The notes: generated from the letters alone by a model not told the origin. A stretch of DNA of 64,000 bases from Candidatus Fervidifonticultor sextus (GCA_031459875.1 JAVKHQ010000005.1:39584-103583); one strand, 5' to 3'; counted from the stretch's first letter, positions 19,426 through 49,277 are shown. Made by a program: numbers and translations.

Positions 19426-19941
19426 TTAGGCTGGGCGGTGGGCTCGAGGCGGAGGGTCCGGAACGGGGAGGGGGATGGGCATGAGGCCCGGCGAGACCGG
19501 GCGGGCGACCCGTTCGGTCGGCGGTGGCGCTCCCGGCATCACTGTCGCTGGCGCCGTGGCGACGGCCAGGCCCGAGACGCTGAGGACCTGCGCGCCATGG
19601 GCGGTCCCGGGAAGGACGGACACGACACGCGGCAGTTCAGAAATTCGTCGGCTGCCGTGCGGGGGCCACGCCGCGCTCTTCCCGTTCTCACCATGATGTC
19701 CGGGGGATCCGCGCTGCCGGTCGTGGCCGTGGCGACGGTGGTGGGCGAGCGCGTCGGCGCGCTGCGCAGGCGTACCGCCGATCACCACGTGCAGGTGGTA
19801 CGGGTCGCGCTCCACCGCCTGCGTGTCGGCGACCGGGACGATCAGTCGCAAGACCATCGCCGGCAACGCAACCGCGGCCACAACCAGGAACGGACCCGGA
19901 CGGCTTGAGCGATCTGCCGGCGCCGCGCGACATGGGAACAT
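19426..19941 (-). CDS. Uncharacterized His-rich single-pass membrane protein, paralog 1 of 3.
   Basis: TM helix FLVVAAVALPAMVLRLIV, then DPYHLHVVIGGTPAQRADALAHHRRHGHD and a C-terminal PDPPPR. Conserved with the proteins at 46480-46998 and 48798-49277. Start uncertain. Confidence 0.5.
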   Translation of the reverse strand: MFPCRAAPADRSSRPGPFLVVAAVALPAMVLRLIVPVADTQAVERDPYHLHVVIGGTPAQRADALAHHRRHGHDRQRGSPGHHGENGKSAAWPPHGSRRISELPRVVSVLPGTAHGAQVLSVSGLAVATAPATVMPGAPPPTERVARPVSPGLMPIPLPVPDPPPRAHRPA

Positions 19942-20348
19942 GCCTGGCCGGTGTTCGACAGTGGTAGGATGAAGTCCTCCCCCCTTCCAACCCGATGCAG
20001 ACATGGACATCCGGACGACGGCCCGCGGCAAGCGCGATGGCACCATCGTGCGCCACCTGCAGCTCGCCCACAACGAGCGGGGTCCGCGGACCGGAATGCC
20101 CCGGGCCCGCGTCCTGTCCCGGCAATCCGGGCCAACCTGGGAAGCGCCCGGAACTCCAAGGTGGCGGGCTCACCGGCCCTCACGACGACAGCCCGGGATG
20201 TGGGAACCACCGCCAGGTCGGCGGAGAACGCCACGACGTCCCACGCGCCCGGCACCACCCGCAGGTGGGCCCTCCCCGTCGCGTGTCCCGTGGTCATTGC
20301 ACCGGCCCGCGCGTCATGGCAGTGTCCCAGCTTCGATCATGGTCCGTA

Positions 20349-20978
20349 TCAGGGCTTCTGGCTGATAGCCAGCCGCCCGTACCTCTCTGGAAGGAACACG
20401 CCCACGTTCCGCGGCCACCAGAAGCTGGGGCCACGGTCGTAGTTGTCCCAGTAGTGCAATCCGGTGGCCACCGTCCCGCCGAGTGCAACACCGATCTCCT
20501 CCAATGGGACCGACAGCTCGTACATCATGTGGCGCGCTGCGGGCGGGCCCATCGCCGCGCCCCGTGCGCGGCTGTCGAAGTGAAATGTCCGTCGGCCTCG
20601 CGCATCGATGCGGTCCGTGCGCAGCCGGCCGTCGCCATAGAGCCAGTAGCCGACCTCGCCCTTGAACCAGATGGCCATGTTGTCGAAGCCGGTGTGGGGA
20701 GGGCTGGACGCCGTGGTGTTGGTGATGTCGTGGATGGCGTCGACACCCACGTAAAGCCGCTCCGTATCGTTCATGACGAGGAAGACGCACCGCGCACCCC
20801 CATCGCGGCTGGCCAGGGTCAGGCGGGCCGCTGCCCGCCACTCGTCCTCTCCGACGACCCCGTCGATGTCAGGCGGCGTGACCGCGTAAGGACTCTGGAG
20901 CACCTCCTGCCCACCGGCTCCTCCCGCGAGGAGACCGGCGATCGCCAGAAGTGCGCCAGCGGCCCCGACCCGTCTCAT
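20349..20978 (-). CDS. Secreted hypothetical protein.
   Basis: Signal peptide MRRVGAAGALLAIAGLLAGGAGG; no recognised domain. Confidence 0.5.
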   Translation of the reverse strand: MRRVGAAGALLAIAGLLAGGAGGQEVLQSPYAVTPPDIDGVVGEDEWRAAARLTLASRDGGARCVFLVMNDTERLYVGVDAIHDITNTTASSPPHTGFDNMAIWFKGEVGYWLYGDGRLRTDRIDARGRRTFHFDSRARGAAMGPPAARHMMYELSVPLEEIGVALGGTVATGLHYWDNYDRGPSFWWPRNVGVFLPERYGRLAISQKP

Positions 20979-21037
20979 ATCACCTGCTCCGGGTTTGGGA
21001 CGCGGATGGGGGGCGTCCGTTCACGTTTGGTCCACCG

Positions 21038-21601
21038 CTATGGCATTCGTGGAATCTGCGACGCAGGCCAGAGACCATCGGCGGATCCCGCCGGGAAGAC
21101 TTGCAAGTAGTAGACCGTATTGGCTGGTACGGGCAGCGGCACACCCGTTTGTGTGTAGCCGCCAATGGCTAACCCAATGTGGTCATACACGGCGACGATG
21201 AAACCGGTCCTGTCGCTGAGAAGCCAGCGGAAGCTGGGGGTGCCATATACCTGCCACGCGGTCTGAAGGGGAGTGCCCAAGGCCACACCCTCGGCTGTAC
21301 GGAACCGGATCGCCTCACCAGCCCCCTGGAGCAGCAGGGCTACCACTTGATCGGTGTCGCGACGGACGAGGGCAACGAGCGCCCAGCGCTGTCCCTGCGG
21401 TCCGAACGTCCATCCTATGGCCGCGAGGGTCGGGTTGGCCGCCGCCCCCAGGTTCTGCGGGAGCCCCAGTTGCATGCGCAGTGCCGCGCCCGTCACGCCG
21501 AGCCGGTAGGGGCCGATGCGGTCCCCAGGTACCATCACCGAGTCCTCCGGCGTGGCGGCGGCGCCTGGGAGCCAGGCGAAGGTGGCGCCTGCCAGCGTCA
21601 T
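21038..21601 (-). CDS. Secreted hypothetical protein, paralog A (tandem with 21699-22181). Start uncertain.
   Basis: Shares PGDRIGPYRLG and FRTAEGVALG with paralog B. The long track ORF is truncated here so that it does not overlap paralog B. Confidence 0.45.
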   Translation of the reverse strand: MTLAGATFAWLPGAAATPEDSVMVPGDRIGPYRLGVTGAALRMQLGLPQNLGAAANPTLAAIGWTFGPQGQRWALVALVRRDTDQVVALLLQGAGEAIRFRTAEGVALGTPLQTAWQVYGTPSFRWLLSDRTGFIVAVYDHIGLAIGGYTQTGVPLPVPANTVYYLQVFPAGSADGLWPASQIPRMP

Positions 21602-21698
21602 GAGCAGAAGCGCGAGTCTCGTAGCGGGCGTCGAGCCGCCGCCGATCCGCCTGTGCGCAGGGTCGATGACGGGTGCTGGCGACCCAGGCGGTCTTTGG

Positions 21699-22181
21699 CT
21701 ACTGGGATTTGTGATCAAAGACCCCAATGGCAATGATCCTGCCCTCTTTGGTCTGCACATAGAGCCCAATTCTCCAGTAGGCGCGCGCTTCGACATTTCC
21801 CGGATATTGGTGGCGCCATTCCGGTCGACCGAAGCGGTCGAGCTCTGAACCAGGACTGCCAAGGCCGACGCCATCGGCCGTCCTGAAGACCCGGTTCGCC
21901 TCAGAGTCGAGGAGCGTCGCGGCCGAGACCGTGTGGGTCGCGTTGAAGAACGAGAAGTAGATACGCTTGTCCCGCCAGAGCATGCCGTAGGACTGAGGCA
22001 TGGTGGTCGAACCTCGTTCCCCGACCGACCCCATCAGGCCGATCACGCCGGCCAGCGTCATGCCCAGATTGTAGGGTCCGATGCGTTTGCCAGGGACGAT
22101 CAGGGTGCCGTCTTCAACCTGCGCAGCGGCCAATGTGTGCGCCGCCAGGATGCTGACGAGAACCGCGAGTCCTTTCCGCAT
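21699..22181 (-). CDS. Secreted hypothetical protein, paralog B.
   Basis: Signal peptide MRKGLAVLVSILAAHTLAAA. Contains PGKRIGPYNLG and FRTADGVGLG. Confidence 0.55.
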   Translation of the reverse strand: MRKGLAVLVSILAAHTLAAAQVEDGTLIVPGKRIGPYNLGMTLAGVIGLMGSVGERGSTTMPQSYGMLWRDKRIYFSFFNATHTVSAATLLDSEANRVFRTADGVGLGSPGSELDRFGRPEWRHQYPGNVEARAYWRIGLYVQTKEGRIIAIGVFDHKSQ

Positions 22182-22316
22182 GACGCCACTCCACGAGAAG
22201 GTCGCGCCCGGTCACCCGGTCAGCTGACGGCCTACCTGTCTTGAATTGTTCAGCAGGCCCGGACGGCCCGCAAGGAGAAACATTCGCAAAACTTCGCAGG
22301 TCGTGGGGGACATCCG

Positions 22317-23675
22317 ATGCTCCGCCTCTCGCTCACGGACAGGCGGGTTACCGCAGAAGGGCGGCCGCTGGCCCTCAGCCCGGCGTTTTTCCAACTGTAC
22401 TGCCTGCTGGCCTACGAGCGCGCCTCCGGCCGTGATCGGTTCGTCACCGTCCGCGACGTCCGGCGCCTCTCCCGGTGGGGACGAGCCACCCCCGACAGCA
22501 TCGGGAAGAGCATTCACCGCCACGTCCGCCGGGCGCAGCGCGCCGGATGGGACCTCATCGAGTCTCCGCCCAGGGCAGCGACGAAGTTGTTTCGGCTGAA
22601 GGACGCCCATGTCGTATTCGATACGCCGCTGTCCGCCGTCGAGAGTTTCCTCGGCCTCGATCTCGCCGTCACGACTCCATCGTACCCGTGGCCCGGCGGG
22701 CGATCGCCGGCCGTCGATAGGATGTTCAGGTTCTTGTGGGCGATGGTGCGGGCACGGATGGAGCTGGAGCGCGGCGACTTAGTCAGAGCCCGGTCCATGA
22801 TCGAGGAGGCCGAACGGGTAGAAGGACAGCGCCCCAGAGACCGCATCCTGCTCCTCCTGCTGACCTCCAGCATCCTGGAGCACGAAGGGCGGTTCGACGA
22901 AGCGCTGGCGAAGGCGCAGGATGCCCTGGCAATGTGCCGCGCTCACGGCGGCGATTACCTGACGCTGGCCCGCGCCTGCATCCGGGTGGGGTTCCTGGGC
23001 GCAATGCTGCGGCAGCCGCACCGCTACGGGGAAGCCCGCGACCTGTACCTGGAAGCCCAGAGGCTCATCGAGGGTTCCCAGCACCTGATCGAGCTCTCGC
23101 AGATCGCCACGGGGCTCGGACATCTGGCTCGGAGGGCACACGATCTGGATGATGCGCTGGCCTACTTCATCCGCGCCCTCGAGTACGCCGCGGCGGAGGC
23201 CTGGGGGTGGGGCATTCAGGCAGGTCTGTTCAATCTGGGCCTGGTCCAGGCGGAGCGCGGTGACAGCCTGCAAGACCAGCGCGCCCGCCAGGCCGCCTAC
23301 CTGGAGGCCCGCGCCTGGTTGGAGCGAGCGGTGGAGTTTGTGGACCGGACCGGCATCGGCCGGTATTCCAGCGAAGGGCTGTCGGTGATGGCCCACGTCC
23401 TGCTGCGCCTGGGCCGAGGTAGAGCGGCCGTCGTCTGGGCCAGAGCGGCCCTGGATCGCGCACGGGCGGTGCAGAACAGGAAGAGCCGGGCCGTGGCACT
23501 GGAAACCCTCGGAGAGGCCCTCTGCGCCATTGGTGACCGGGCAGAGGGAATCAGGGCGCTGCGGGAAGCATACTCCGAGTATGGGGCCATGGGCTTCGAG
23601 CCCGATGCCCGGCGCGTCCTGCACCTGATCGCTGAAGCCAGGAGCCGCCGGCGGGGCGGCAAGCCCCGACCGTGA
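22317..23675 (+). CDS. Transcriptional regulator with an N-terminal OmpR/SARP-type winged helix and TPR-like helical repeats.
   Basis: N-terminus [26 protein letters not shown]...VTVRDV is wHTH-like. The remainder is alpha-helical repeats rich in A, L and R. Confidence 0.55.
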
Positions 23676-23700
23676 CGGTTACAGGCGGACAGGGGATGGC

Positions 23701-24285
23701 ATGAGCGGCACCGGCGGGAACATCGAGGTTATCTGCGGGAGTATGTTCAGCGGGAAGACTGAGGAGTTGATCCGTCGGGTGCGGCGCGCCCAGATCGCCC
23801 GGCAGCGGGTTCAGGTGTTCAAGCACGCGCTGGACGACCGCTACGCGGTCGGGGCGATCACCTCCCATGACGGCGGGCGCATCGAGGCGGTGCCGGTCAC
23901 CACCAGCGCGGAGATCCTGGCGCAGGTGCATTCTGAGACCGGCGTGGTGGCCGTCGACGAGGTCCAGTTCCTCGACGACGGCATCCGCCAGGTGGCCCAG
24001 ACCCTCGCCGCCCGCGGCGTCCGCGTGATCCTGGCCGGTCTGGATGTGGACTTTCGCGGCGAACCGTTCGGTCCGATGGGGTATCTGCTGGCGGTCGCCG
24101 AGGAGGTCACCAAACTGCAGGCCATCTGCATGATCTGCGGAGCGCCGGCCACCCGGACACAGCGCCTGGTGGACGGCCGGCCCGCGCACTACACCGACCC
24201 GGTGATCTTCATCGGCGCCGGCGAAGCCTACCAGGCCCGCTGCCGGCGCTGCCACGAGGTGCCGGGCCGGCCGGGCGAACCCTGA
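23701..24285 (+). CDS. tdk: Thymidine kinase.
   Basis: P-loop [14 protein letters not shown]. Zinc ribbon CMICGAPA...CRRCH. Confidence 0.9.
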
Positions 24286-24294
24286 CTGTGCGGG

Positions 24295-24325
24295 TTCGCG
24301 GGCGGCTGGGGTCCCGTACTATAAT
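24295..24325 (+). promoter_or_regulatory. prfA promoter: consensus -10 TATAAT at 24320-24325, with a weak -35.
   Basis: Seen directly in the sequence. Confidence 0.4.
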
Positions 24326-24341
24326 CGGGACGGTGAACTCG

Positions 24342-25421
24342 ATGGATGCCAGACTCAAGGCCCGCCTGGAGGCGCTGGAGGCCCGCTACGAGGCCCTGGC
24401 GGCCCAGATGGCCGACCCGGCGGTGCTGGCGGATCAGGCCCGCTACCAGGAGGCGGCGCGGGAGTACGCCGAACTGGAGGGGACGGTGACGCGTTTCCGC
24501 GCGTACCGCGAAGCCAGCCGCCAGGCCGCCGAGGCCGAGGCGATGGCGCGGGAGGAGGCCGACCCCGACCTCCGCGAAATGGCGAGGGGTGAGGTCGCCC
24601 GGCTGGCGGAACGGCTCGCCGGCCTGGAGGCCGACCTCCAGCGCCGGCTGCTGCCGCCTGACCCCCTCGACGAGCGCCACATCATCGTCGAAATCCGGGC
24701 CGGGACCGGCGGCGACGAGGCCGCGCTCTTTGCCGGGGACCTGCTCCGCATGTACACGCGCTACGCCGAGCGCCACCGCTGGAAGTCCGAGGTGCTCTCG
24801 GCGAGCCCGACCGGCATCGGGGGGTTCAAGGAGGTCGTCGTGGCCATCGCCGGCCGGGGCGCCTACAGCCGGCTGAAGTACGAGAGCGGCGTCCACCGCG
24901 TCCAGCGGGTCCCGGTGACCGAGTCGTCCGGCCGCATCCACACCTCCACGGCGACCGTGGCGGTCCTGCCCGAGGCTGAGGAAGTGGACGTCGTCGTCCG
25001 GCCCGAGGACCTGGAGATCGAGACCTACCGGGCCGGGGGGGCCGGGGGCCAGAACGTCAACAAGGTCGAGACGGCGGTCCGCATCAGGCACCGGCCCACC
25101 GGTCTGGTCGTGACCTGTCAGGACGAGCGCTCGCAGTTCCAGAACCGCGAGAAGGCCATGCGCATCCTGCGGGCGCACCTGCTGGAGCGGGCCGAGCGCG
25201 AGCAGGCCGAGGCGATCGCGAGGCAGCGCCGCCAGCAGGTGGGCACGGCGGAGCGCAGCGAGAAGATCCGGACCTACAACTTTCCCCAGAACCGGGTCAC
25301 CGACCACCGCATCGGTCTCAGTCTCCACCGGCTCGAGACTGTGCTGGACGGCGACCTCGACGAGTTGATCGAGGCCCTCACCGCCGCCGATCGGGCCGCC
25401 CAGCTCGCCGCGGTGGACTGA
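24342..25421 (+). CDS. prfA: Peptide chain release factor 1.
   Basis: GGQ motif ([17 protein letters not shown]) and PxT region. I chose the ATG at 24342 ([10 protein letters not shown]...). Confidence 0.9.
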
Positions 25422-25445
25422 TCCCCCGGGAACCTGACTGCCGCC

Positions 25446-26303
25446 GTGAGGACCGTCGCCGAGGCCTGGATGGCCGGCCGCGAGCACCTGGCCGCATTGG
25501 GCGTGGAGGAGGCCGCGATCACCGCGGAAGTCCTGCTCCGGCACGCCCTGGGCTGGACCCGCACCGAACTCTATCTGGCCTGGCACCGCCCCCTCGACGA
25601 GGCGGCCTGGACGCGCTTCCAGGCCCTCCTGGACGCCCGGGCGGCAGGACGGCCGGTGGCATATATCGTCGGCCGGCGGGAGTTCATGGCACTGGACTTT
25701 CTGGTGGATGAACGGGTCCTCATCCCCAGGCCCGAAACCGAGGTGCTGGTGGAGGCGGCGCTGGAGGCGGTCCGCGACGTCCCGGCACCGGCCATCGCCG
25801 ACATCGGCACCGGCAGCGGCGCTATCGCCGTGAGCCTGGCGGTCCTGCGTCCGGACGCCGCCATCGTCGCCACGGACCTCTCCCAGGATGCCCTGGAGGT
25901 GGCCCGGACCAACGCCGACCGGCACGGCGTGGCCGACCGGATCCGCTTCCTCCAGGGCGACCTGTTAGCCCCGGTCGCCGCCGCCGGCATGCGCCTGGAC
26001 CTGGTGGCCTGCAACCCCCCCTACGTCTCCCCTGAGGCGGCGGGGGGGCTGCCCAGGGAGATCCGGGAGTTCGAGCCGGCCGTCGCGGTGGTGGCTCCCG
26101 GGGACCCCCTGGACCTCCACCGCCGGCTGGTCACCACGGCGCCCGGGGTCCTGCGGCCACGAGGCTGGCTGGTGGTGGAGGTCGGAGCAGGCCAGGCCCC
26201 GCGTGTGGTCGAACTGTTCAATCAGGCGGGCGCCTACGAGGCTCCAGTCACAAGACGGGATGGCCTCGGGTGGGATCGGGTCGTGGCCGCGCGCATCCGG
26301 TGA
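25446..26303 (+). CDS. prmC: Release-factor glutamine N5-methyltransferase.
   Basis: NPPY motif (VACNPPYV) and DIGTGSGAI SAM-binding motif. Confidence 0.88.
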   Translation: MRTVAEAWMAGREHLAALGVEEAAITAEVLLRHALGWTRTELYLAWHRPLDEAAWTRFQALLDARAAGRPVAYIVGRREFMALDFLVDERVLIPRPETEVLVEAALEAVRDVPAPAIADIGTGSGAIAVSLAVLRPDAAIVATDLSQDALEVARTNADRHGVADRIRFLQGDLLAPVAAAGMRLDLVACNPPYVSPEAAGGLPREIREFEPAVAVVAPGDPLDLHRRLVTTAPGVLRPRGWLVVEVGAGQAPRVVELFNQAGAYEAPVTRRDGLGWDRVVAARIR

Positions 26304-26306
26304 GCC

Positions 26307-26804
26307 ATGAATGAGAAAGGCCGACCGGCGAACTACTACGCGCTCACCTTCCAGCCGGCGGTGGATCGATCTCAGGAGCCCATCGTGATCCTCCGAGTGG
26401 ATCCGCGCGATGATGCCGTGCCGCGCAGGGCGGTGGAGGTGCTCCGCGCAGGCGGGCTGATCGTCTTTCCCGCCGACGACGGCTACCTGGTCGGGTGCTC
26501 GGCGCTGGATCCTGAAGCGGTCCAACGGCTGTGCGAGGTCACCGGTGTCAGGCGCGAGGCCCTCACCTATTTCGCCGGCTCGCCGGAGCACGCCGCCCGC
26601 CTGGACGCGCCGACCCGCCCGCTCCACCATCCCGTACCGCTGGCGCTGATGCGCGCCACCGGAGTGCCGCTGGCGGCGACGCCCTGCCGGCCCGATGGGC
26701 CACCGGCGCCGTCGGCCCAGCACGCCGTCTTCATCCTGGGGGACGCCGCGGATCTGGTTTTGGACGCCGGACCGATCCGGCAGCCGGCTCCCGCAGGCAG
26801 GTAA
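26307..26804 (+). CDS. Protein with a YrdC/Sua5 domain only (L-threonylcarbamoyladenylate synthase family, short form).
   Basis: LIVFPADDGYLVGCSALDPEAVQRL; only 165 aa, with no Sua5 C-terminal domain. Confidence 0.65.
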   Translation: MNEKGRPANYYALTFQPAVDRSQEPIVILRVDPRDDAVPRRAVEVLRAGGLIVFPADDGYLVGCSALDPEAVQRLCEVTGVRREALTYFAGSPEHAARLDAPTRPLHHPVPLALMRATGVPLAATPCRPDGPPAPSAQHAVFILGDAADLVLDAGPIRQPAPAGR

Positions 26805-26808
26805 GACC

Positions 26809-27264
26809 GTGCGCATCGTGATCGGAGGTGACCACGCGGGGGTGCTCCTCAAGGCGGAGATCGCGCGCCTGCTGCTGGAACTGGGTCACGAGGTGCGAGA
26901 TCTGGGTACCAACACCGTGCAGCCGGTGGACTACCCCGACTACTGCATCCCGGTGGCCGAGGCGGTCGCGCGCGGGGAGGCCGATCGGGGCATCATCTTC
27001 GGCGGGACGGGCAACGGCGAGGCCATGGCGGCCAACAAGGTGATGGGGATTCGATGCGCCGTCTGCCACGATGTCACCACGGCGCGCCTGGCGCGATCCC
27101 ACAACGACGCCAACATGCTCGCGCTGGGCGCCCGGATCGTGGGGACCGAGGTCGCCAAGGAGATCGTCCGGACGTTCCTGGCAACCCCGTTTGAAGGGGG
27201 ACGGCACATCCCGAGGATCGAGAAGATTCACAGGTACGAGCGGGAGCGCAGGCTCCCGCCGTAG
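26809..27264 (+). CDS. rpiB: Ribose-5-phosphate isomerase B.
   Basis: (M)RIVIGGDHAG...GGTGNGEAMAANK...CHD. GTG start at 26809. Confidence 0.88.
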   Translation: MRIVIGGDHAGVLLKAEIARLLLELGHEVRDLGTNTVQPVDYPDYCIPVAEAVARGEADRGIIFGGTGNGEAMAANKVMGIRCAVCHDVTTARLARSHNDANMLALGARIVGTEVAKEIVRTFLATPFEGGRHIPRIEKIHRYERERRLPP

Positions 27265-27303
27265 CACGACGAGGCCGGCATACTTCAGGGGAGGTGACAG
27301 GGG

Positions 27304-27717: not shown

Positions 27718-27738
27718 GCTCCACCGGCAACAGGAGTG

Positions 27739-27775
27739 CAGACCGGGCCGGGATTCCCGGCCCGGTCTGTTGGAC
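27739..27775. terminator. Bidirectional intrinsic terminator between convergent genes: 14-bp perfect stem (CAGACCGGGCCGGG / CCCGGCCCGGTCTG) with an ATTC loop, followed by TTGGACTGG.
   Basis: Seen directly in the sequence between the ACT-domain gene (plus strand) and glyA (minus strand). Confidence 0.6.
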
Positions 27776-27783
27776 TGGTATCC

Positions 27784-38360: not shown

Positions 38361-39005
38361 GTGAAGACCCGCGAGGTCGCATTGACCGGCTTGATGGCGG
38401 CGCTGGTGCTGGTGATCACCCGTGCCTTCGTCCTGCCCATCCCGCAGACCAAGGGGTTCTTCAACCTGGGCGAGGCCGGGGTGTACCTGGCGGCGGTGCT
38501 GTTCGGCCCCCGCGTCGGCGCCCTGGCCGGCGGCATCGGGTCGGCCCTGGCCGACCTCACGCTGGGCTACGCCCAGTACGCGCCCTTCACGCTGGTCATC
38601 AAGGGCATCGAAGGCGCGTTGGTGGGCACCATCGCCCGCGGCGCCCGGGCGGCCTGGGTCCCCGGGCTCGCCGTCGGCGCGGCTGCGGCGGTGTGGCTGT
38701 TCTCGATGGAGGCCTTTGCCATCCGGATCGCTGCCGCATGTCTGTTGGTCGCGGCTCTGGTCGGGCTGGCGCTGCTGGCCCGCAGGCCGGAGGGCCGGGC
38801 GCCCGCCCGCCTGGCCGGCATGATCAGCGGAGGGTTGGTCATGGTGGCGGGCTACTTCACCACGCAGGCCTATGTGCTGGGGCTGGGGGCGCCGGTCGCC
38901 CTGGTGGAGGTTCCCTACAACCTGGTGCAGGTGGTGGTGGGGGTGGTGGCCGGCCTGGCAGCCGTGGCGACGGTTGAACGTGCCCTCCTTGCGCCGCCTC
39001 CGTAA
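38361..39005 (+). CDS. ECF transporter S (substrate-specific) component; substrate unknown.
   Basis: FFNLGEAGVYLAAVLFGPRVGALAGGIGSALADL; about six transmembrane segments. GTG start after a GGAGG RBS. Confidence 0.65.
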   Translation: MKTREVALTGLMAALVLVITRAFVLPIPQTKGFFNLGEAGVYLAAVLFGPRVGALAGGIGSALADLTLGYAQYAPFTLVIKGIEGALVGTIARGARAAWVPGLAVGAAAAVWLFSMEAFAIRIAAACLLVAALVGLALLARRPEGRAPARLAGMISGGLVMVAGYFTTQAYVLGLGAPVALVEVPYNLVQVVVGVVAGLAAVATVERALLAPPP

Positions 39006-40969: not shown

Positions 40970-41101
40970 GTCCGGGCAGTCTGCATAGGGTCATGGGGAG
41001 CAGTCTCCTCTCTGTCGGTGTGCTACGCCGCCGCGGGGAGGTCTCCTGGGCGTCCGGCGTCCCCCAGGGACCGTCGGGGGTGACCGCGAACTGACAGGCC
41101 C

Positions 41102-41740: not shown

Positions 41741-42331
41741 CTATCGGCCCTCCAGGAGCGCTCGCGCGTCCGCCGCGAGGTCTGCGGCCAGAACGCCCCA
41801 TGGATACGAGAACCGGATCGTCCCGTGCCGGTCGATGAGGTAGATCGCCGTGGCATGGCCGATGCGGGCGTCCTCACCCGACCCGGCCGCCGCGTAGGGA
41901 GCGGGATAGACATTGAACGCCCGGTAGAGACGCGCCAGGACCTCTCGCGCGCCGGTGAGGCCGACGAAGTCCGGGTGGAAGATCGAAACGTACCAGCGCA
42001 ATCGCTCGGGCGTGTCGCGATCCGGATCAGTGGTGACGAAGAGCACGCGCACGTGCGCCGCGTCCACCCCGAGCAACGCCCGTGCCTGTCTGAGGGTGAC
42101 CAGCGTGGTCGGGCATACGTCGGGACAGAGCGTGTAGCCGAACGCGAGGAACACCACCATGCCTCGCAGCGCATCGAGCGAGAACGGGCGACGGTGACCA
42201 TCGAGCAGGGTGACCGCTGCCGGGAGCGGTTCGCGGACCGGCAGCCCGCGGAAGGCCGGTGGGGCCGCCCGCAGGCAGGCCCCACCCAGCAACGTCAGGC
42301 CCACGAGCGCGCAGGCCCACACCCCGCGCAT
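41741..42331 (-). CDS. SCO1/SenC-family copper chaperone (third, divergent copy).
   Basis: CPDVCP is the CxxxC motif; thioredoxin fold. Confidence 0.8.
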   Translation of the reverse strand: MRGVWACALVGLTLLGGACLRAAPPAFRGLPVREPLPAAVTLLDGHRRPFSLDALRGMVVFLAFGYTLCPDVCPTTLVTLRQARALLGVDAAHVRVLFVTTDPDRDTPERLRWYVSIFHPDFVGLTGAREVLARLYRAFNVYPAPYAAAGSGEDARIGHATAIYLIDRHGTIRFSYPWGVLAADLAADARALLEGR

Positions 42332-42332
42332 C

Positions 42333-42716
42333 TCAGGGGACCACCCGGAGCGTCGCCTGCATCCCGGCTTCCCGGTGCCCGGGGATGCTGCAGTACACCA
42401 CGTAGGCTCCCGGCGCCAACCGGGCTTTCACCTGCACGGTCTTGCCGGCAGGGAAGGGTTTGGCCTCCGCGACAATCTTCTTCGCCGCATTCTCGACGAC
42501 AAAGTCGTGCTCGACGGCTCCGGCGTTCCGCACAGTGAATGTGACCTCGCCGGCCTTCGCCAGCAGGTCCCTGGGTTCGTAGACGAACTCCCGGGCGACC
42601 ACGGTCACCGACAGGGAGGGCGAGGCGGGCGGCGGTGCCGGAGCCGCCGATGGCGTGTGTGCCGCGGTCATCCCCAGGATCGTCAGCGCCATGCCAACCC
42701 GGCGTACGATACGCAT
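42333..42716 (-). CDS. Small type-1 (blue) copper cupredoxin.
   Basis: Signal peptide; CSIPGHREAGM carries the C-x-P-G-H...M ligand motif. Confidence 0.7.
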   Translation of the reverse strand: MRIVRRVGMALTILGMTAAHTPSAAPAPPPASPSLSVTVVAREFVYEPRDLLAKAGEVTFTVRNAGAVEHDFVVENAAKKIVAEAKPFPAGKTVQVKARLAPGAYVVYCSIPGHREAGMQATLRVVP

Positions 42717-42745
42717 GCTGAACCCCTCCGATCTGGACCGCGCCG

Positions 42746-44266
42746 TCAGTGCGCCGGCCGCGGCTTGATGACGAGGACCCCGTTGCCACCCCAGGCGTCC
42801 GGCCCCAGGTGGACGTCCCCCGCCTTCCGCGGGGGAGAGACGGATAGGTCGACCACCGTGAGTACCGGCGCGTACTTGTTGGTCACGTAGGCCAAAAACC
42901 CGCCGCCCTGCTTGAAGCCGTAGGCCACGCCGTGGGCGCCCTTGTACGCCGGCACTTCGCTGACGACCCGAATCTTCGATGGATCGTCGTAGTCGACCGC
43001 GATCACGCTGGCGTTGGCGGTCCCGGTGTTGGCCACGACGACGTAGCGGCCGTCCGGGCTGAACGGCGACTGAATGGGCACGGCGCCGACCCGCACGATC
43101 TTGACCACCTTGGGGTTCTTCGGATCGCGCAGGTCCTGGAAGATCAGGCGGCCCTGGAGGAGCTTGTCGTGGGTCAACAACACGGTGGTGGTGACCGCGT
43201 AGCGCTTGTTGGGCGAGATCGCCGCGTACAGAGGCAGGTTGGCGCCGAATGCCTTCCCGTCGAGATCGGTCACCTTCGACAGGTCCACCGTGGTCAGCAC
43301 CTTCTCCGCGTCCAGGTCGATGATCGACATCTGCCCCGAGAGCGCGTTCGCGACGACCATGAGCTTGCCGTCGGGCGAGATCCAGCCGCCGTGCGGTCCG
43401 AGGGGCACCTCGATGTAGCGCACCGGGACCTGGGCCGCCGGTACGGCGGGATCCACCGCCTTGACGAGATCGAGCACGGCAATCCGGTTCGCCGCGTTGA
43501 TGGTCACCACGACCTTGCCCTGGGGCGTGGTGTGGGTGTGCGCGGGGGACTCGCCGACCGGGATGCGGTTCTTGACGATGCGCCGGGTCCGGGCGTCGAT
43601 GATGGTCAGGTAGTTCTGATGCCAGTTGGTCTGGACGACGTAGCGCTCGTCCCAGGAGACCATGGCGTTGTGCGGGTTGTTGAAGTCGCCGTCGATGACC
43701 GCCTTCACCTTCATCGTGGCGGCATCCACCACCGTGACGGTGCCCGGCGCCTCGCGGTTGGGTCGGGTCTGGAACTGCGTGTCCACCCACACCTCGCCTC
43801 GGCCTCGCACGCGCGGTGGCACCAGGCCGGTGGGGCTGGCCGGCGGCCACGGCTTGATGAACTGCGGCAGGGGGTTCGCGCCGACCGCGATCTGCCCGTC
43901 CATGTAGGGATGGATGGCGCAGACGTAGACGTAGACCCCCGGCTTGGTGAACTGCTGGCGCGCCGTGCCCTTGCGGCCCACGATGGTGATGGTCTTCGCC
44001 GGTTCGTCGAAGCCGGTGAGGAAGGTGATGGTGTGGAGCGTCCGGGCATCAGAGAACGACCAGACGACCTCGTCGCCCGGCTCCACGCGCAGCGTCTGTG
44101 GGAAGAACCACGGCGCGAACTCGCTGACGACGACGGCGTTCTTTGGCAGGGCGGGCGGTGGCGCGCCGCCCGGGGCCTCGGGCGCGGAGCGCGCGATCCC
44201 GGCCGGCCCGGCGATCACCGCGGCCGCGATGGCGAACACCAGCAGGCTCCTGCTCAGCGTCGGCAT
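42746..44266 (-). CDS. Secreted cupredoxin domain fused to a YVTN-family beta-propeller.
   Basis: N-terminal region YVYVCAIHPYMDGQ has the C-x2-H-x2-M cupredoxin site. This is followed by repeated YVVVAN / AVTTT propeller blades. Signal peptide after the ATG at 44266. Confidence 0.7.
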   Translation of the reverse strand: MPTLSRSLLVFAIAAAVIAGPAGIARSAPEAPGGAPPPALPKNAVVVSEFAPWFFPQTLRVEPGDEVVWSFSDARTLHTITFLTGFDEPAKTITIVGRKGTARQQFTKPGVYVYVCAIHPYMDGQIAVGANPLPQFIKPWPPASPTGLVPPRVRGRGEVWVDTQFQTRPNREAPGTVTVVDAATMKVKAVIDGDFNNPHNAMVSWDERYVVQTNWHQNYLTIIDARTRRIVKNRIPVGESPAHTHTTPQGKVVVTINAANRIAVLDLVKAVDPAVPAAQVPVRYIEVPLGPHGGWISPDGKLMVVANALSGQMSIIDLDAEKVLTTVDLSKVTDLDGKAFGANLPLYAAISPNKRYAVTTTVLLTHDKLLQGRLIFQDLRDPKNPKVVKIVRVGAVPIQSPFSPDGRYVVVANTGTANASVIAVDYDDPSKIRVVSEVPAYKGAHGVAYGFKQGGGFLAYVTNKYAPVLTVVDLSVSPPRKAGDVHLGPDAWGGNGVLVIKPRPAH

Positions 44267-44332
44267 GACGACACCCCCGTTCGTCAGGTGATCGTGCGGT
44301 CTGACAGCGTGCACTCGGACCTCTTGCATGGC

Positions 44333-45004
44333 TCATCTCGCCGCCTGGACGAACGTCCTCCATGTGCGCGCCGCGCCTGCGGCGGAGGCCGGCGCGTGGT
44401 CGGGACAGTCGATCCGCAGGGCGCGGTCGCCGAAGGCGGCGTCCACGAACGCACAGTGATGCGGGCGGGCGGGATCGGCGTGCACGTGCGGCCGAAAGTA
44501 CCGGCAGGTGACGCACATCCGGCTCGGGGCGATCTGCCCAGACTCCTGGAGGGCGCGGATCACCTTCACCAGGGCGCGCAGCAGGGCGGCCTGCTCGGTT
44601 ACCCCGAGCGTGTCGACCGCAGCGTGCACGGCTTCGCCCCAGCTCAACGCCCGACCCGCTTCGCGACGACCCGCGGGTGTGAGGACAATGAGCCGGCCAC
44701 GGCCGTCGCCACCGACGGCGTGCTTGGCGACAAGCCCTTTCCGCGCCAGGGTGGTGACCGCCTGGCTCGCGCTCGCCCTGGTGACGCCCAGCGCGGCCGC
44801 GACGGCGGAGAGGCGCTGGCCACCGGGATGGCGGCGCAACATGGTGAGGATCAGCCCCTGCGTCGGCGTGAGGCCGCGTGGCCCGGCGCCACGCCACGAC
44901 GCCTGCCGCAGCGCCAGAGCGATCCTGCTCAGGCCGGCGGTGACGCGTTGCCGCAGGGGCTCGCCGTCGACCTCAACCCGGGTGAACGCCGACCTGGAGA
45001 CCAT
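44333..45004 (-). CDS. MarR-family winged-helix regulator with a Cys/His-rich C-terminal tail; possible metal (copper) sensor.
   Basis: LTPTQGLILTMLRRH...LSAVAAALGVTRASASQAVTTLARKGLV is a MarR wHTH. The tail reads MCVTCRYFRPHVH...HHCAF...RIDCPDH. Confidence 0.65.
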   Translation of the reverse strand: MVSRSAFTRVEVDGEPLRQRVTAGLSRIALALRQASWRGAGPRGLTPTQGLILTMLRRHPGGQRLSAVAAALGVTRASASQAVTTLARKGLVAKHAVGGDGRGRLIVLTPAGRREAGRALSWGEAVHAAVDTLGVTEQAALLRALVKVIRALQESGQIAPSRMCVTCRYFRPHVHADPARPHHCAFVDAAFGDRALRIDCPDHAPASAAGAARTWRTFVQAAR

Positions 45005-45254
45005 GTTGGTTAAGTCTCCTAACGACTCGTTGCCTCCCGGGTTCGACACAGAGGTCGAGGTTCCTGCACGCCTCCGACGGACCGCGGAGGCACGCCAACC
45101 TTCGGGCCAGTGGACGCCCGCCAAGAGGGGGCCGCCACGGGCGCCGGCACCGGGGAGCATGATGTCGCTCTCCGGGACAGGGCCGTGGGTGATCCCGCGG
45201 GCGCGATTCCTCGGTTGGTCGGCGGGTGCGGGCCCGGCGCCGTCCGGCCGAAGG

Positions 45255-45764
45255 TCAGGGCGCCGCCATTCGCACCGGCACCCGGACCGCCACCGCCCCG
45301 GCCTGCTCGAAGTGCAGCGTCGCTGTGAACCGATCCCCCTCCCGAAGGTCGCGCTTGAGGCCAAGCAGCATGATGTGGAGGCCGCTTGGCCGCAGCGTCA
45401 CCCGGCCGCCCGCGGGCACCACAATAGCCGGCAGCTTGTGCATGCGACTCATGCCGCCCTCCATGCGCGTCTCGTGGAGCTCCACGGCGGCGGCAACGTC
45501 GGTCTCGGCACGCACCAGACGATCACCCCTCGGTCCGGTGTTGTGGATGGTCATGTAGATCGCCGACGTGCCGGGGCCCATGGCCATGGTGGTCCCGTGG
45601 GCACCGGCGGGAGCCGCGATGCCTGGCCGCGCCTAGGCGTCCTCGATGCGGATAGGCGAGGCCGGCGGCGCCGCTTCGCTGGCAGCGATGGCGGCCATGA
45701 ACACCACTGCGGTGAAGAGGGCCGTGCCTCGCAGCCACGAGATTCTCAAGCACATCAAGTCCAT
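45255..45764 (-). pseudogene. PCu(A)C copper chaperone paralog interrupted by an in-frame TAG at 45633-45635, where the intact copy has TGG.
   Basis: The single reading frame 45764-45255 encodes MDLMCLRISWLRGTALFTAVVFMAAIAASEAAPPASPIRIEDA*ARPGIAAPAGAHGTTMAMGPGTSAIYM...HETRMEGGMSRMHKL. It aligns residue-for-residue with the intact copy (...IRIEKAWARPG...). Confidence 0.6.
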
Positions 45765-45813
45765 ACTCATCACTCCTTTCCAGCCCGCACCAATGCCAAG
45801 TCGGGCGTCGAGC

Positions 45814-46389
45814 CTAGTGCCGCAACAGCTGCCGGATGTCGTGTACCAGGTCGTCCGCGGTGGCCTCGTGGCTCAGATTCAGACGCCAGCGGCCCTGCCG
45901 GTCGATGACGGCGATGTTCGCCGAGTGCGCCACGAGGTACCCCGCCGCGCTCTTGGGCACCGGGACCTTCTCGAACGCCGCGCCGAAGAATCGGTACGTG
46001 GTGGTCAGTGCGTCCGGGGGGCCCGCCAGGCCCACGAACTCCGGATGGAACAGCCGCAGGTACCGGTCGAGGAACGCCGGCGTGTCGATTTCCTGGTCCA
46101 CCGTGACGAATACGAAGCGAACCCGTGCGGCATCCGCCCCGAGCCTCTCGGCGACCTGGCGGAAGACCCCGAGTACGAGGGGGCAGACATCCGGGCACCG
46201 GGTGTACCCGAAGAAGATCAGGACGACCCGACCCCGCTGCCCGGCCAGGTTGAACGGGTGCCCATGTTGGTCGGTGAGCGTGAGCGCCGGCACCGGACGG
46301 GGAGGATCGAGCACGCGGCCCCGGAAGGTCGGGCGCTGGCAGGCTGAGACCAGCAGCACCAACAGGCCGACGGCGATCCATCTGGACAT
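45814..46389 (-). CDS. SCO1/SenC-family copper chaperone, second copy (about 80% identical to 18746-19330); lipoprotein-like.
   Basis: CPDVCP; lipobox-like VSAC. GGGAGG RBS 6 nt before the ATG at 46389. Confidence 0.8.
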   Translation of the reverse strand: MSRWIAVGLLVLLVSACQRPTFRGRVLDPPRPVPALTLTDQHGHPFNLAGQRGRVVLIFFGYTRCPDVCPLVLGVFRQVAERLGADAARVRFVFVTVDQEIDTPAFLDRYLRLFHPEFVGLAGPPDALTTTYRFFGAAFEKVPVPKSAAGYLVAHSANIAVIDRQGRWRLNLSHEATADDLVHDIRQLLRH

Positions 46390-46479
46390 GGGTGACCTCC
46401 CTCGAAAAGCGTTCAGCGCGGCACACGTCACGGCGTCCCCGCCGATGGGGCGGAGCGCGGGCCGCAGTGACCTCGGTGA

Positions 46480-46998
46480 CTAGGCGAGAGGGTCTGGTCG
46501 GGGCGGGGGATCCGGGACGGGAATGGCGACCCGGGCGACGCGCGGCGGGGCCAGACCTGCGATCTGTCCGGTGGCCCGGGGGGCGGGGGGCCCCGCAGGC
46601 GCCGCCACCGTTGCGACCGACAGGCCGGTCGTGCTCAGGACCATCGCGCCCGAGGCAGTCCCGGGAAGGACCGACACGACGCGCGGGACTTGGGGGTCGC
46701 CCTGGGCCATTCGTTGGGTCTGCCCCCCGCCCGTCCAGTGTCGTCCCGGATGTCCGGCGGAGCCGTGCGGTCTGTCGTGGTCGTGGTGACGGTGGTGGGC
46801 GAGTGCTTCAGCGCGCTGCGCGGGGGTGCCGCCGATGACGAGATGCAGGTGGTAGGGATCGCGCTCCACCGCCTGCGTGTTGGCGATGGGCAGGATCAGC
46901 CGCGCGATGGTCACCAGCAACAGGCCCGTGCCCGCAGCCTGGCGTGGCGACGAGCGATCCCAGCGGGCGACCAATGTCGCGCGAGGCACGAGCATCAT
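46480..46998 (-). CDS. Uncharacterized His-rich single-pass membrane protein, paralog 2 of 3.
   Basis: TM helix LLLVTIARLILPIA, then DPYHLHLVIGGTPAQRAEALAHHRHHDHDRPHG and a C-terminal PDPPPRP. Confidence 0.5.
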   Translation of the reverse strand: MMLVPRATLVARWDRSSPRQAAGTGLLLVTIARLILPIANTQAVERDPYHLHLVIGGTPAQRAEALAHHRHHDHDRPHGSAGHPGRHWTGGGQTQRMAQGDPQVPRVVSVLPGTASGAMVLSTTGLSVATVAAPAGPPAPRATGQIAGLAPPRVARVAIPVPDPPPRPDPLA

Positions 46999-47011
46999 GC
47001 TGTACCCGCTC

Positions 47012-47041
47012 ATTATAGTCGGTCGCCGCACCAGCGTGCAA
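47012..47041 (-). promoter_or_regulatory. Near-consensus sigma-A-type promoter: TTGCAC, 18-nt spacer, TATAAT (on the minus strand), driving the His-rich/SCO/PCuAC array. The first ATG of that gene lies about 8 nt past the predicted TSS.
   Basis: Seen directly in the sequence: reverse complement of GTGCAA at 47036-47041 and ATTATA at 47012-47017. Confidence 0.45.
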
Positions 47042-47127
47042 CGCACAGAGGGGAGGAGAGGGGCGGACGCACCCGGGGAAGTCACGTCCCGTCGCCGGGA
47101 GAGATCGCGGCAGGTCGCGTGAACTCG

Positions 47128-48042
47128 TTAGCGCGTCTTCAGGTAGCGGAGAAGCCCCAGCGCGCTCAGCCGCGTGGACATGATCGTCTCGAACCGGGCC
47201 ACGCGGTCTGGCCCGTCGAGCCGGGCGGCTTCGACCGCCATCACGTGGCGCATCCGGCGCGCGATCGCGTCTTCATCAGCGCCGTCCTCCAGGGCCACGC
47301 GGACCAGTTCCACCGCCGCGTGCAGGCGCTGCTGCAACTGCGCCAGCAGCTCCTCGACCCAGGTGTGCGCGCCGAAGTGCGTCAGCAGGAGCCGCCGCGC
47401 TCCAAGCCCCTGCAGGCGCCCGATGGTGGCATCCCACGCCGGGACGTCGAGTTCGGGGGGTGGGGTCGGGGGGCGGACGTAGCGGGATCCCGGCAGCGCC
47501 ACGCCGGCCGCGTCCCCGGTGAAGAGGTCCCCGGAGGCGCGATCGAAGTAGACGACGTGATGACGGGCGTGGCCGGGGGTATCGAAGACGGCCAGCCGAC
47601 GCGACCCCAGCAACACCTCCGCCCCCTCGCCGATGACGCGGATCCGCTCGTGGGGCACCGGGGCCACCTCGCCGAAGAGCCGCTCCAGGTCCGCGCCGTA
47701 CAGCCGCCGGGCGCTGGCCATCAGCCGCGAGGGATCCGCCAGGTGGGGCGCGCCCACCGGGTGCACGTAGACCTCCAGATGCGGGAACCGACGCACGAGG
47801 ACGCCGGTGGCGCCCGCATGGTCCAGGTGAATGTGGGTCACGGCCAGGGCCTGGAGGTCTTCGGGCTCCACCCCCGCGGCCCGCACGCTCTCCAGGAGGG
47901 TCTCCACGGTAGACGCCGGCCCGGTCTCGATCAGGGCCGGCCGGTCGCCCGTCAGCAGGTAGGCGCCGATGGCCTGCGGGGTCCCTTCGTAGTCGGTGTC
48001 AATCAGAACGAGATCGTCGGCCAGGCGTTCGATGCGCGGCAT
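47128..48042 (-). CDS. MBL-fold metallo-hydrolase.
   Basis: THIHLDHAG carries the HxHxDH motif. Confidence 0.8.
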   Translation of the reverse strand: MPRIERLADDLVLIDTDYEGTPQAIGAYLLTGDRPALIETGPASTVETLLESVRAAGVEPEDLQALAVTHIHLDHAGATGVLVRRFPHLEVYVHPVGAPHLADPSRLMASARRLYGADLERLFGEVAPVPHERIRVIGEGAEVLLGSRRLAVFDTPGHARHHVVYFDRASGDLFTGDAAGVALPGSRYVRPPTPPPELDVPAWDATIGRLQGLGARRLLLTHFGAHTWVEELLAQLQQRLHAAVELVRVALEDGADEDAIARRMRHVMAVEAARLDGPDRVARFETIMSTRLSALGLLRYLKTR

Positions 48043-48090
48043 GGGTCGTCCCCCGGTGAGCGTCCGGCATCACAATAACACAGCCGGATG

Positions 48091-48099
48091 TGGTATGCT
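48091..48099 (+). promoter_or_regulatory. Extended -10 element, TGgTATGCT, in the divergent region, driving the DUF3105 / CopC / CopD plus-strand array.
   Basis: Seen directly in the sequence. Confidence 0.4.
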
Positions 48100-48143
48100 C
48101 ACCTGCGAGATTGCCACGCGAGCCTCAGGTGAGGGGTTGCGGC

Positions 48144-48794
48144 ATGTCACCAGGCGGCAAGGCTACCCGGGAGGCGAAGCGACAGCGCCGTGAGGCGGCG
48201 CTCGCGGCCCGGCGCGAAGAGCAGCGTCGGCTCCAGGCCCGGCGGCGACGGCGGGCGCTGGCCGTCTACGGGGGCATCGCCTTGATCGTGGTGGCCGGCG
48301 TGGGGTTGCTGACGCTCTCGGCGCTCCGCCCTCAGTCCAGCATCTTGGGTGCCATCGGCGGCTTCGGGAAGCCGTCTGGCCTGGAGGGGGTCCAGGTGTT
48401 TGCGGACCAGGGCGCGGCCCACATCACCCTGGGCCAGGCGCACCCTCCGTACAACTCCAATCCGCCCACCTCGGGATGGCACACTCCCTTCACCGCCCCC
48501 TGGGGAGTGCACCGCACGTCGATCGCGGACGAGATCATCGTCCACAACCTGGAGCACGGCGGCATCTGGATTTCATACAGGGACGCATCCGACACGGCGC
48601 TGGTGGAGAGGCTGGAAGCCCTGGTGTCCCGCTACCGCTCCAAGGTGATCCTGACGCCGCGGTCCAATAACGACAGCCGGATCGCCGTGGCCGCCTGGAC
48701 GCGCCTGCTGAAACTCGACGAGTACGACGAGCGGAAGATCGTGGCCTTCATCAACGCCTTCAAGAACAAGGGACCGGAGATGGTCCCTGACTGA
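48144..48794 (+). CDS. DUF3105 domain protein with an N-terminal Arg-rich segment and a TM helix.
   Basis: TM helix LAVYGGIALIVVAGVGLLTL, then GWHTPF...HNLEHGGIWISY. Confidence 0.65.
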   Translation: MSPGGKATREAKRQRREAALAARREEQRRLQARRRRRALAVYGGIALIVVAGVGLLTLSALRPQSSILGAIGGFGKPSGLEGVQVFADQGAAHITLGQAHPPYNSNPPTSGWHTPFTAPWGVHRTSIADEIIVHNLEHGGIWISYRDASDTALVERLEALVSRYRSKVILTPRSNNDSRIAVAAWTRLLKLDEYDERKIVAFINAFKNKGPEMVPD

Positions 48795-48797
48795 GCG

Positions 48798-49277
48798 GTG
48801 GAGGACCGGCGGCTGATGGAGGCTGCACGTTGCGCCAGGGCGGCGGCCGTGGTCACGCGCCCGGTCCGAACGTCTCTGCTCCCCGTGTTCCTGGTCATCG
48901 TCCTTCTTGGTGCTTTCGATCCGGGTGCGGGGGAGCGGGGTCCTTCGCACGCACACATCGTAATCGGTGGCACCCCGGACGAGCAGGCGCGAGCCCTCGC
49001 TGCCCATTTGCGGGGCGCGCACTCGTCGGCCACCTCCCACGCCTGGCATGTGCTCTTCCGGGCCTCCGACGAGGCGACAGACCACCCCCACGTGATCTCC
49101 ATCAGCACGGGTGCGGTCGGTGCCTCCGTCCTCGGAGTCGGCGACGGGACCATGGTGGCCGCGCCCGCCAGCCGGGTGCCCCGCGCACCGCTGTCCGGCC
49201 GGGTTGTGCCCCTGCAGTCCGCGGCGCCGGCCGAAGCCGATCGGACCGTCCCTGATCCGCCTCCTCGCCTCACCTGA
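48798..49277 (+). CDS. Uncharacterized His-rich single-pass membrane protein, paralog 3 of 3 (divergent).
   Basis: TM helix LLPVFLVIVLLGAF, then PSHAHIVIGGTPDEQARALAAHLRGAH and a C-terminal PDPPPRLT. Confidence 0.45.
   Translation: MEDRRLMEAARCARAAAVVTRPVRTSLLPVFLVIVLLGAFDPGAGERGPSHAHIVIGGTPDEQARALAAHLRGAHSSATSHAWHVLFRASDEATDHPHVISISTGAVGASVLGVGDGTMVAAPASRVPRAPLSGRVVPLQSAAPAEADRTVPDPPPRLT

Follow-up and report, generated by a model that had tools for sequence, protein, structure and literature searches.

A histidine-based membrane protein family encoded upstream of copper genes in Candidatus Fervidifonticultor sextus as a candidate nascent-chain copper sensor

Three X genes and the copper genes that follow them

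We analysed a 64,000-nucleotide (nt) stretch of the genome of Candidatus Fervidifonticultor sextus (GCA_031459875.1, JAVKHQ010000005.1:39584-103583; hereafter the window), which carries three genes of one unannotated family of small membrane proteins, hereafter X, each directly upstream of genes for copper proteins. An initial annotation made from the sequence alone had described them as three paralogous open reading frames (ORFs), and the ORF listing of the window returned all three at the same coordinates and strands: X1 at 19426..19941 on the minus strand (171 amino acids, aa), X2 at 46480..46998 on the minus strand (172 aa) and X3 at 48798..49277 on the plus strand (159 aa, or 153 aa when read from a second ATG at 48816, as public gene calls have it). 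In BLASTP comparisons X1 was 54% identical to X2 (E 2e-32) and 36% identical to X3 (E 9e-15). The HxH block and the C-terminal PDPPPR that had been pointed out were found in every copy; more fully, X1, X2 and X3 have in common a hydrophobic helix at the N-terminus, the block P-[YS]-H-[LA]-H-x-V-I-G-G-T-P...A-L-A-x-H, a strand-like (P)RV(V/I)S(V/I) segment and a C-terminal VPDPPPR. X1, X2 and X3 are true paralogous genes. In X1, the transmembrane (TM) helix spans approximately residues 17-38, the histidine site comprises H49-x-H51 (19789-19797, minus strand) and H68 (19738-19740, minus strand), and PDPPPR (residues 161-166; 19444-19461, minus strand) is followed by five residues and the stop codon. 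The corresponding motif lies at 46498-46515 in X2 and at 49251-49268 in X3, where two residues separate it from the stop codon. X2 is identical to the NCBI protein QN168_04125, annotated as hypothetical, from a metagenome-assembled genome (MAG) labelled Armatimonadota. The best match of X1 in a collection of 5.8 billion proteins has at most 59% identity, while X2, X3 and the YA protein (see below) of the same MAG are present there, and X1 was probably missed by public annotation. A shadow ORF of 156 aa lies opposite X1 at 19438-19908.

X1 and X2 each head a pair of genes for SCO1 and PCu(A)C, an arrangement that was proposed initially and is borne out by Pfam. Downstream of X1, a 95-nt spacer (19331..19425, minus strand) carries the Shine-Dalgarno (SD) sequence GGGAGG 6 nt ahead of the ATG of SCO1a, a lipoprotein-type SCO1/SenC protein (18746..19330, minus strand; 194 aa; PF02630, E 4.7e-36) whose start at 19330 was placed by the SD and the LLSAC lipobox, and then comes the PCu(A)C copper chaperone PCuACa (18176..18745, minus strand; PF04314, E 4e-33). 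X2 is followed by a 90-nt spacer (46390..46479, minus strand) that likewise ends in a GGGAGG SD, by SCO1b (45814..46389, minus strand, with its start at 46389; 191 aa; PF02630, E 1.6e-35) and by PCuACb (45255..45770, minus strand). The third copy had been placed between DUF3105 and CopC/CopD; both flanks stand by Pfam, but a further gene, YA, intervenes before CopC. The DUF3105 protein (48090..48794, plus strand; PF11303, E 1.8e-28, and a gene call) is encoded directly upstream of X3, and a 101-nt spacer with a GGGAGG SD (49278..49378, plus strand) leads from X3 to YA (49379..49813, plus strand; 144 aa). YA was also predicted by an independent gene caller in the same region of the public contig. 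It has a signal peptide followed by an invariant N-terminal histidine, and its Ig-like beta-sandwich is nearest to the copper-binding proteins CrdA, P19 and CopC. Behind it lie CopC (49815..50273, plus strand; 152 aa; PF04234, E 2.5e-18, and a gene call) and CopD fused to a cytochrome c domain (50295..51998, plus strand; 567 aa; PF05425, PF00034 and PF13442). A locus of Ca. Fervidifonticultor octavus (L014:5881-6926) is syntenic with window positions 48798-50273, with DUF3105, X3 and CopC proteins 92-97% identical; it is without most of YA, of which only the first 30 codons align, and CopC follows X3 almost directly.

Conserved features, topology and gene context of the X family

A word-indexed search of 5.8 billion proteins recovered only seven X clusters, X2 among them. 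A HMMER profile search of 1.84 billion representatives extended the family to 121 proteins at E <= 1e-3, of which 69 reached E <= 1e-10; almost all are 125-218 aa long and align over their full length. X had no match in Pfam, NCBIfam or the PDB, and it showed no sequence or fold match to PCuAC, CopC, CusF, SCO1 or YcnI. Most of the clusters are metagenomic singletons named 'hypothetical protein', and scans with a narrow alignment yielded three X loci each from genomes and from metagenomes. The genomes closest by X are Candidatus Fervidifonticultor MAGs; MAGs of this genus are listed under the phylum CSP1-3, since renamed Sysuimicrobiota. The hosts comprise Sysuimicrobiota (labelled Armatimonadota at NCBI), Chloroflexota-type organisms and other metagenomic lineages, with one remote member from a Chloroflexota MAG. 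Several paralogs occur per genome, in different copper neighbourhoods, and X evolves faster than the neighbouring SCO1 (54% identity between X1 and X2 versus 77% between SCO1a and SCO1b). Judged by these searches, X is a rare, unannotated family.

In an alignment of 112 X sequences, H49, H51, H68, P164 and P165 were invariant (112/112), and P47, G55, L65, V106, P163 and R166 were conserved in at least 90%, with P163 and R166 reaching at least 92%. The PPPR motif ends 1-5 residues ahead of the stop (median, 2 residues after R166), and the alignment contained no conserved Cys column. The His-rich stretch initially taken as a family feature did not hold up as one: the linker varies in length and content, although many members are His-rich, and H49, H51 and H68 are the only invariant histidines. 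The distance from V106, in the conserved RVxS strand, to P165 is 58 ± 1.2 residues (range, 54-61); residues 104-168 are free of insertions and deletions though poorly conserved, whereas the linker upstream varies in length.

The AlphaFold2 (AF2) model of X comprises the TM helix (17-38), a strand (50-54), a helix (58-71) and a second strand (105-109), with the rest in coil and a mean predicted local distance difference test (pLDDT) score of 71; the C-terminal 20 residues score approximately 80. Alignment columns 20-38 are hydrophobic, with an Arg-rich flank before the TM helix and an acidic flank after it. This positive-to-acidic order indicates an N-in/C-out topology with the His motif predicted to be extracytoplasmic, in agreement with the membrane anchoring first suggested, and the cytoplasmic tail would be about 15-20 residues long.

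We further compared the contexts of X in 13 independent lineages, for which DNA was readable for spacer work at 12 loci. In 13/13 lineages X immediately preceded its neighbour gene, both on one strand, and genes with copper domains followed in 12/13, either SCO1-PCuAC or a CrdA/P19-like protein with CopC/CopD; the co-occurrence with copper genes that was to be checked in other genomes thus holds up in these lineages. The arrangement X-SCO1-PCuAC recurred in four further lineages (P0001, P0003, P0004 and P0006), X-YA-CopC/CopCD in P0007 (L005/L015/L020) and L021, and X-lipoprotein (YB)-CopC-CopCD-cytochrome c in P0114, P0120 and P0127, while P0129 had X-YB only. At the 12 loci, the spacer from X to the next gene measured 83-219 nt and led to a strong SD. 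Intrinsic terminators were absent from every X-to-next-gene spacer, and neither a sigma factor gene nor an anti-sigma domain was found at any X locus examined.

Spacer RNA and known copper-sensing leaders

For partition-function folding we took the RNA that begins 60 nt ahead of the X stop and ends 14 nt inside the next gene. Pairing of the SD was scored against the final 36 nt of X and 8 further nt; dinucleotide shuffles served as the null. The probability that the SD of the next gene is paired with the X 3' end was 0.65-1.0 in 9/12 loci (shuffle means, 0.04-0.29). Control same-strand gene pairs from the same loci (n = 11) gave a median SD pairing of 0.04, with 2/11 above 0.5, and the difference between X loci and control pairs was significant (Mann-Whitney, p = 0.0017; Fisher, p = 0.0095) among loci that are related to one another. 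For X2 the pairing probability was 1.00 (shuffle mean, 0.13): the spacer to SCO1b folds into one long hairpin, at whose base the last X2 codons, GACCCUCUCG, pair with the SCO1b SD region, CGAGGGAGGUC. For X3, the SD GGGAGG pairs with the stop-codon region CCUCACCUGA (P = 0.80; shuffle mean, 0.15). In L016 the anti-SD element CCUCCCAC forms part of the ORF, where it encodes T-S-H, but in L018 it is located beyond the stop codon; this suggests a role of the element at the RNA level. The SCO1-type spacers also share a central hairpin, recovered by RNAalifold. Its arms, CACUGCGGCCCGC ... GCGUCGCGGUG, are common to the X-SCO1 spacers at 19331-19425 and 46390-46479 (minus strand), L002 and L008; some pairs are altered on both sides, and the hairpin is conserved beyond the expectation for a neutral spacer.

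Two known copper-sensing leaders resemble X. CutF of R. capsulatus (cutFOG; Ozturk et al. 2021, PMC8456105; 2023, PMC9973294; 2025, bioRxiv 10.1101/2025.02.05.636593) is a protein of 118 aa with a cleavable Sec signal, exported cotranslationally, whose CxxxC motif lies ~45 aa from its PPP. Regulation requires its C-terminus, P109EPEGPPPRL118, and the paused ribosome opens an mRNA stem that otherwise hides the SD of the following gene. By sequence, the CutF-like proteins fall into 29 clusters, whose motifs are Cys, His or mixed and in which Chloroflexota members are scarce (Ozturk et al. 2023); a genome has two such genes on average, located in distinct copper neighbourhoods. CruR (Bp2923) of Bordetella pertussis (DUF2946, PF11162; Roy et al. 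2022, PMC9426467) is an exported protein of ~145 aa with a CXXC motif and RAPP 3 residues from its C-terminus; copper on the nascent chain relieves the arrest and triggers Rho-dependent termination, and the signal peptide is dispensable (PMC9426467). CruR heads copper operons that include genes of the Sco, PCuAC, YcnI and CopC types, and the genes it regulates serve copper acquisition. In both CruR and CutF the sensing element and the arrest motif are a fixed 45 aa apart. Copper prolongs the stall in CutF and relieves it in CruR.

Like X, CutF is small and exported, and its gene immediately precedes a copper gene; the two also share a central metal-binding motif (in X, a putative one), a C-terminal PPPR before the stop, low or undetectable predicted structure, multiple paralogs per genome, and an mRNA stem (in X, a predicted one) that shields the SD of the downstream gene. 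The two differ in that CutF controls a detoxifying multicopper oxidase in Pseudomonadota, whereas X precedes genes for copper acquisition and delivery, and in that X has a signal-anchor-like helix, an HxH...H triad, no Cys, no PF11162 match and a 58-aa tether measured from the conserved RVxS strand. CruR shares with X an N-in/C-out export signal, an arrest motif (in X, a putative one) near the C-terminus, a fixed spacing and a long intergenic spacer, but combines CXXC and RAPP with Rho termination, in contrast to the His triad, PPPR, predicted SD sequestration and lack of intrinsic terminators in X. The His-only CutF-like clusters 14 and 17, compared here by description only, resemble X in being small and exported with a C-terminal PP and a putative metal site of His only, yet their neighbours are HupE/UreJ rather than SCO1/PCuAC/CopC/CopD. 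SecM, MifM, VemP and RAPP-type substrates also combine an exported or inserted chain with C-terminal arrest and unmasking of a downstream SD, as is proposed for X. However, these substrates monitor the Sec/YidC machinery from positions upstream of secA, yidC2 or secDF, whereas X carries a metal-ligand motif and precedes copper genes: the gene downstream is not one for protein localization, as is characteristic of SecM, MifM, VemP and ApdA, but SCO1/PCuAC or YA/CopC/CopD.

When compared with the rules by which CutF-like proteins have been recognized, X has a Pro motif within the last 15 residues, an N-terminal export signal (from the AF2 helix and the flank charges) and a same-strand metal-homeostasis gene downstream within 1000 nt (copper in 12/13). 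The size filters were <150 aa in 2023 and <170 aa in 2021, against 125-218 aa in the X family and 171, 172 and 153-159 aa in the window copies. These rules hold for X except for the Cys motif and, in the longer members, the size, and for this reason we file X as a family that would work like CutF and CruR while standing outside DUF2946 by detectable homology, as a putative His-only, copper-associated variant. The initial statement that no characterized family matches X therefore needs amendment, since the CutF/CruR class shares its architecture and CutF its C-terminal PPPR. A scan of the window for more TM-headed ORFs with PPP or RAPP tails returned X1, X3 and an unrelated membrane ORF of 99 aa (38706-39005), missed X2 owing to an Arg inside its TM segment, and detected no Cys-type CutF-like ORF.

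A CruR-type leader was found in the place of X elsewhere. At L024:4491-4868 (plus strand), and also in L025, an ORF of 125 aa with a signal sequence, a CPWC motif and the C-terminus ...RSRAPPSIS* stands first in a YA-CopC-CopD operon, with a 132-nt spacer behind it; its full-length match to PF11162 (E 0.0022, 19.2 bits) lies under the gathering score of 23.7. The public gene call begins the L024 ORF too late, giving 100 aa and losing the signal peptide. Because this ORF heads the same YA-CopC-CopD operon, the position taken by X in the window, L015 and L021 is held here by a CruR-type leader.

Proposed mechanism, rival explanations and neighbouring features

We consider it fairly probable that X acts in cis as an exported nascent-chain copper sensor, with a pause at PPP-R that controls the unmasking of the downstream SD; metal binding, stalling and regulation are what we infer here from the motifs, gene context, spacers and predicted RNA pairing described above. 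The N-terminal signal-anchor would direct the translating ribosome to the Sec translocon, and the three-His site (H49-x-H51...H68, in the small predicted beta-alpha-beta unit) would be exposed outside the cytoplasm and bind copper, probably Cu(II). Elongation would pause once the ribosome arrives at PPP-R, 1-5 codons ahead of the X stop, and metal-dependent folding or tension would pass along the ~58-residue, length-invariant tether through the ribosome tunnel and the translocon and set the dwell time. On a literature estimate of ~30 aa in the tunnel and ~17 aa across the membrane, 58 residues would put the last conserved X strand just outside the translocon when the ribosome is at PPP. A ribosome on the last X codons would melt the helix between the X 3' end and the SD, upon which SCO1 or YA would be translated and the copper-acquisition operon would be on. 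Our guess is that the logic is CruR-like, on when copper is scarce, because the genes that X would control serve copper acquisition and delivery. More tentatively, and with some doubt, we suggest that X may be an independently evolved, His-based counterpart of CutF and CruR, a transmembrane nascent-chain sensor of extracytoplasmic Cu(II). At the periplasmic exit of SecYEG, a three-His beta-alpha-beta module would fold in a metal-dependent manner, the 58-residue tether would link this folding to the PPP-R pause, and the pause would expose the SD of SCO1/PCuAC or YA/CopCD.

Several observations weigh against a leader of this kind. The SD and the tail pair only weakly in X1 (0.32) and not at all in L021 (0.00), and the control gene pairs are few, with shorter spacers than the X loci. 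After synonymous recoding of the X tail, SD pairing was still 0.35-0.70 in 10/12 loci (0.11 in L001 and 0.01 in L021); because recoded tails still pair, the pairing cannot be separated from the Pro-rich coding constraint. For six SCO1-type spacers, the RNAalifold consensus lacked the tail-SD helix and included a sterically implausible hairpin with a 2-nt loop over the SD; our assessment for that reason uses partition functions computed locus by locus, together with shuffles and controls. The His triad of X is 90-128 residues from PPP, compared with ~45 in CutF, so the CutF geometry, with the ligand site in the SecY vestibule, is not directly transferable to X. Homology offers no link to the known leaders: PF11162 matched 0/112 X members at E <= 0.01, and ten members showed no match even at E <= 10; hhalign gave the X profile a probability of 0.5% against the CruR-like ORF; and the CXXC/CXXXC motif by which CutF-like proteins are recognized is missing, there being no conserved Cys. 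Furthermore, the export signal of X resembles an uncleaved anchor, which fits a stable membrane protein; the motif in L016/L018 is QPPE rather than PPPR; and DUF3105 precedes X3 by 3-21 nt, so X3 does not head its cluster in the window.

The initial annotation had proposed a copper-binding partner of SCO1 and PCuAC, of which the link to copper genes stands, while the features of X fit a cis-acting leader better. In its fuller form this explanation makes X a stable, membrane-anchored periplasmic copper chaperone or relay that would pass Cu(II) or Cu(I) to SCO1, PCuAC, YA or CopC, with PPPR as a polyproline docking site, and it is compatible with a leader role; we regard it as possible but rather unlikely. 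The His triad in 112/112 sequences, the His-rich linkers of many members, the uncleaved-looking TM anchor, the small predicted beta-alpha-beta unit, the C-terminal pLDDT of ~80 and the strict adjacency to copper chaperone genes speak for such a protein, and CutF itself was first read as a chaperone with its Pro-rich tail as an interaction motif. However, the His-rich linker is unconserved and coil is predicted for roughly half of the extracytoplasmic portion, and a chaperone leaves unexplained why PPP stands 1-5 codons from the stop and why X is constantly upstream on the same strand, ahead of a long structured spacer. Nor does it give a reason for the pairing of the SD with the X tail or for the replacement of X by a CruR-type leader. 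We prefer a leader over a chaperone because of the upstream position, the stop-adjacent PPP, the structured spacer predicted to hide the SD, the 58-residue ruler, the low structure and the fast evolution.

The same mechanical leader might instead respond to Zn, Ni or Co, or act as a plain translational-coupling leader without metal sensing, both of which appear improbable. A three-His site is also typical of Zn; the His-only CutF-like clusters 14 and 17 stand beside the Ni/Co genes HupE/UreJ (Ozturk et al. 2023); and in four Fervidifonticultor relatives a gene for a Fur-family regulator followed by ZnuA-ZnuC-ZnuB lies divergently beside X-SCO1-PCuAC (for example, L002:4833-7810, L008:2210-5200 and L009:2-885), an adjacency that may reflect shared regulation via the common intergenic region or coincidence. 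Yet the Fur/ZnuABC arrangement is absent at all three X copies of the window, the genes that X would directly control are copper-specific in 12/13 lineages, and plain coupling does not require three invariant His. That X is an anti-sigma factor or another transmembrane signalling protein, or a shadow ORF of GC-rich DNA, seems very improbable. In favour of the former, X is single-pass with a short N-terminal tail, but at ~15-20 residues that tail is too short for an anti-sigma domain, no sigma gene is adjacent at any locus examined and Pfam and NCBIfam give no match. Although the high-GC window carries ORFs on both strands, ~120 homologous clusters keep the frame and motifs of X down to ~25% identity, which supports the frame first proposed as the coding one; together with the gene contexts, these clusters effectively refute both explanations. 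A precursor of a ribosomally synthesized and post-translationally modified peptide was likewise rejected, as no modifying enzymes are encoded nearby.

Exported nascent-chain copper sensing, as in CutF and CruR, was described only in 2021-2025, nearly all of it for the Cys-based DUF2946 proteins of Pseudomonadota, and current annotation leaves X genes 'hypothetical' or overlooks them. If X is such a sensor, a His-only family invisible to Pfam would make the mechanism broader than DUF2946 and would explain how Sysuimicrobiota and Chloroflexota-type organisms control their SCO1/PCuAC and CopC/CopD uptake genes. It would also offer a natural Cu(II)/His variant for probing signal transfer from an outer ligand to the peptidyl-transferase centre, with the 58-residue ruler as a directly testable prediction. 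If its origin is independent, a metal-sensing arrest leader would have arisen at least twice, reaching deep-branching non-proteobacterial phyla.

Among the neighbouring genes, YB is a second type that lacks annotation; it comes immediately after X in Chloroflexota-like contigs (L016:6586-7578, L017:6521-6988 and L018:6586-7254). It encodes a lipoprotein (L-x-A-C) that contains a coiled-coil segment and either one or two copies of a helical module carrying FHG...WP...H-x-AQHELS, has no significant Pfam match and is unrelated to YA. In the second operon of the window, PCuACb contains an in-frame TAG at 45633-45635, where PCuACa and the ortholog in L009 carry Trp (TGG; IRIE-x-W-ARPG), and the C-terminal 110 aa alone are left as an ORF; this could be a nonsense mutation, making PCuACb a pseudogene, or an assembly error. 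Three genes lie 3' of X2-SCO1b-PCuACb on the same strand (42333-45010, minus strand), encoding a MarR-family regulator (44333-45010, minus strand), whose ORF runs on into a C-terminal Cys/His-rich extension, a YncE/lactonase-type beta-propeller protein (42746-44329, minus strand; 527 aa) and a plastocyanin/azurin-like cupredoxin (42333-42800, minus strand), a possible client of the SCO1/PCuAC pair.

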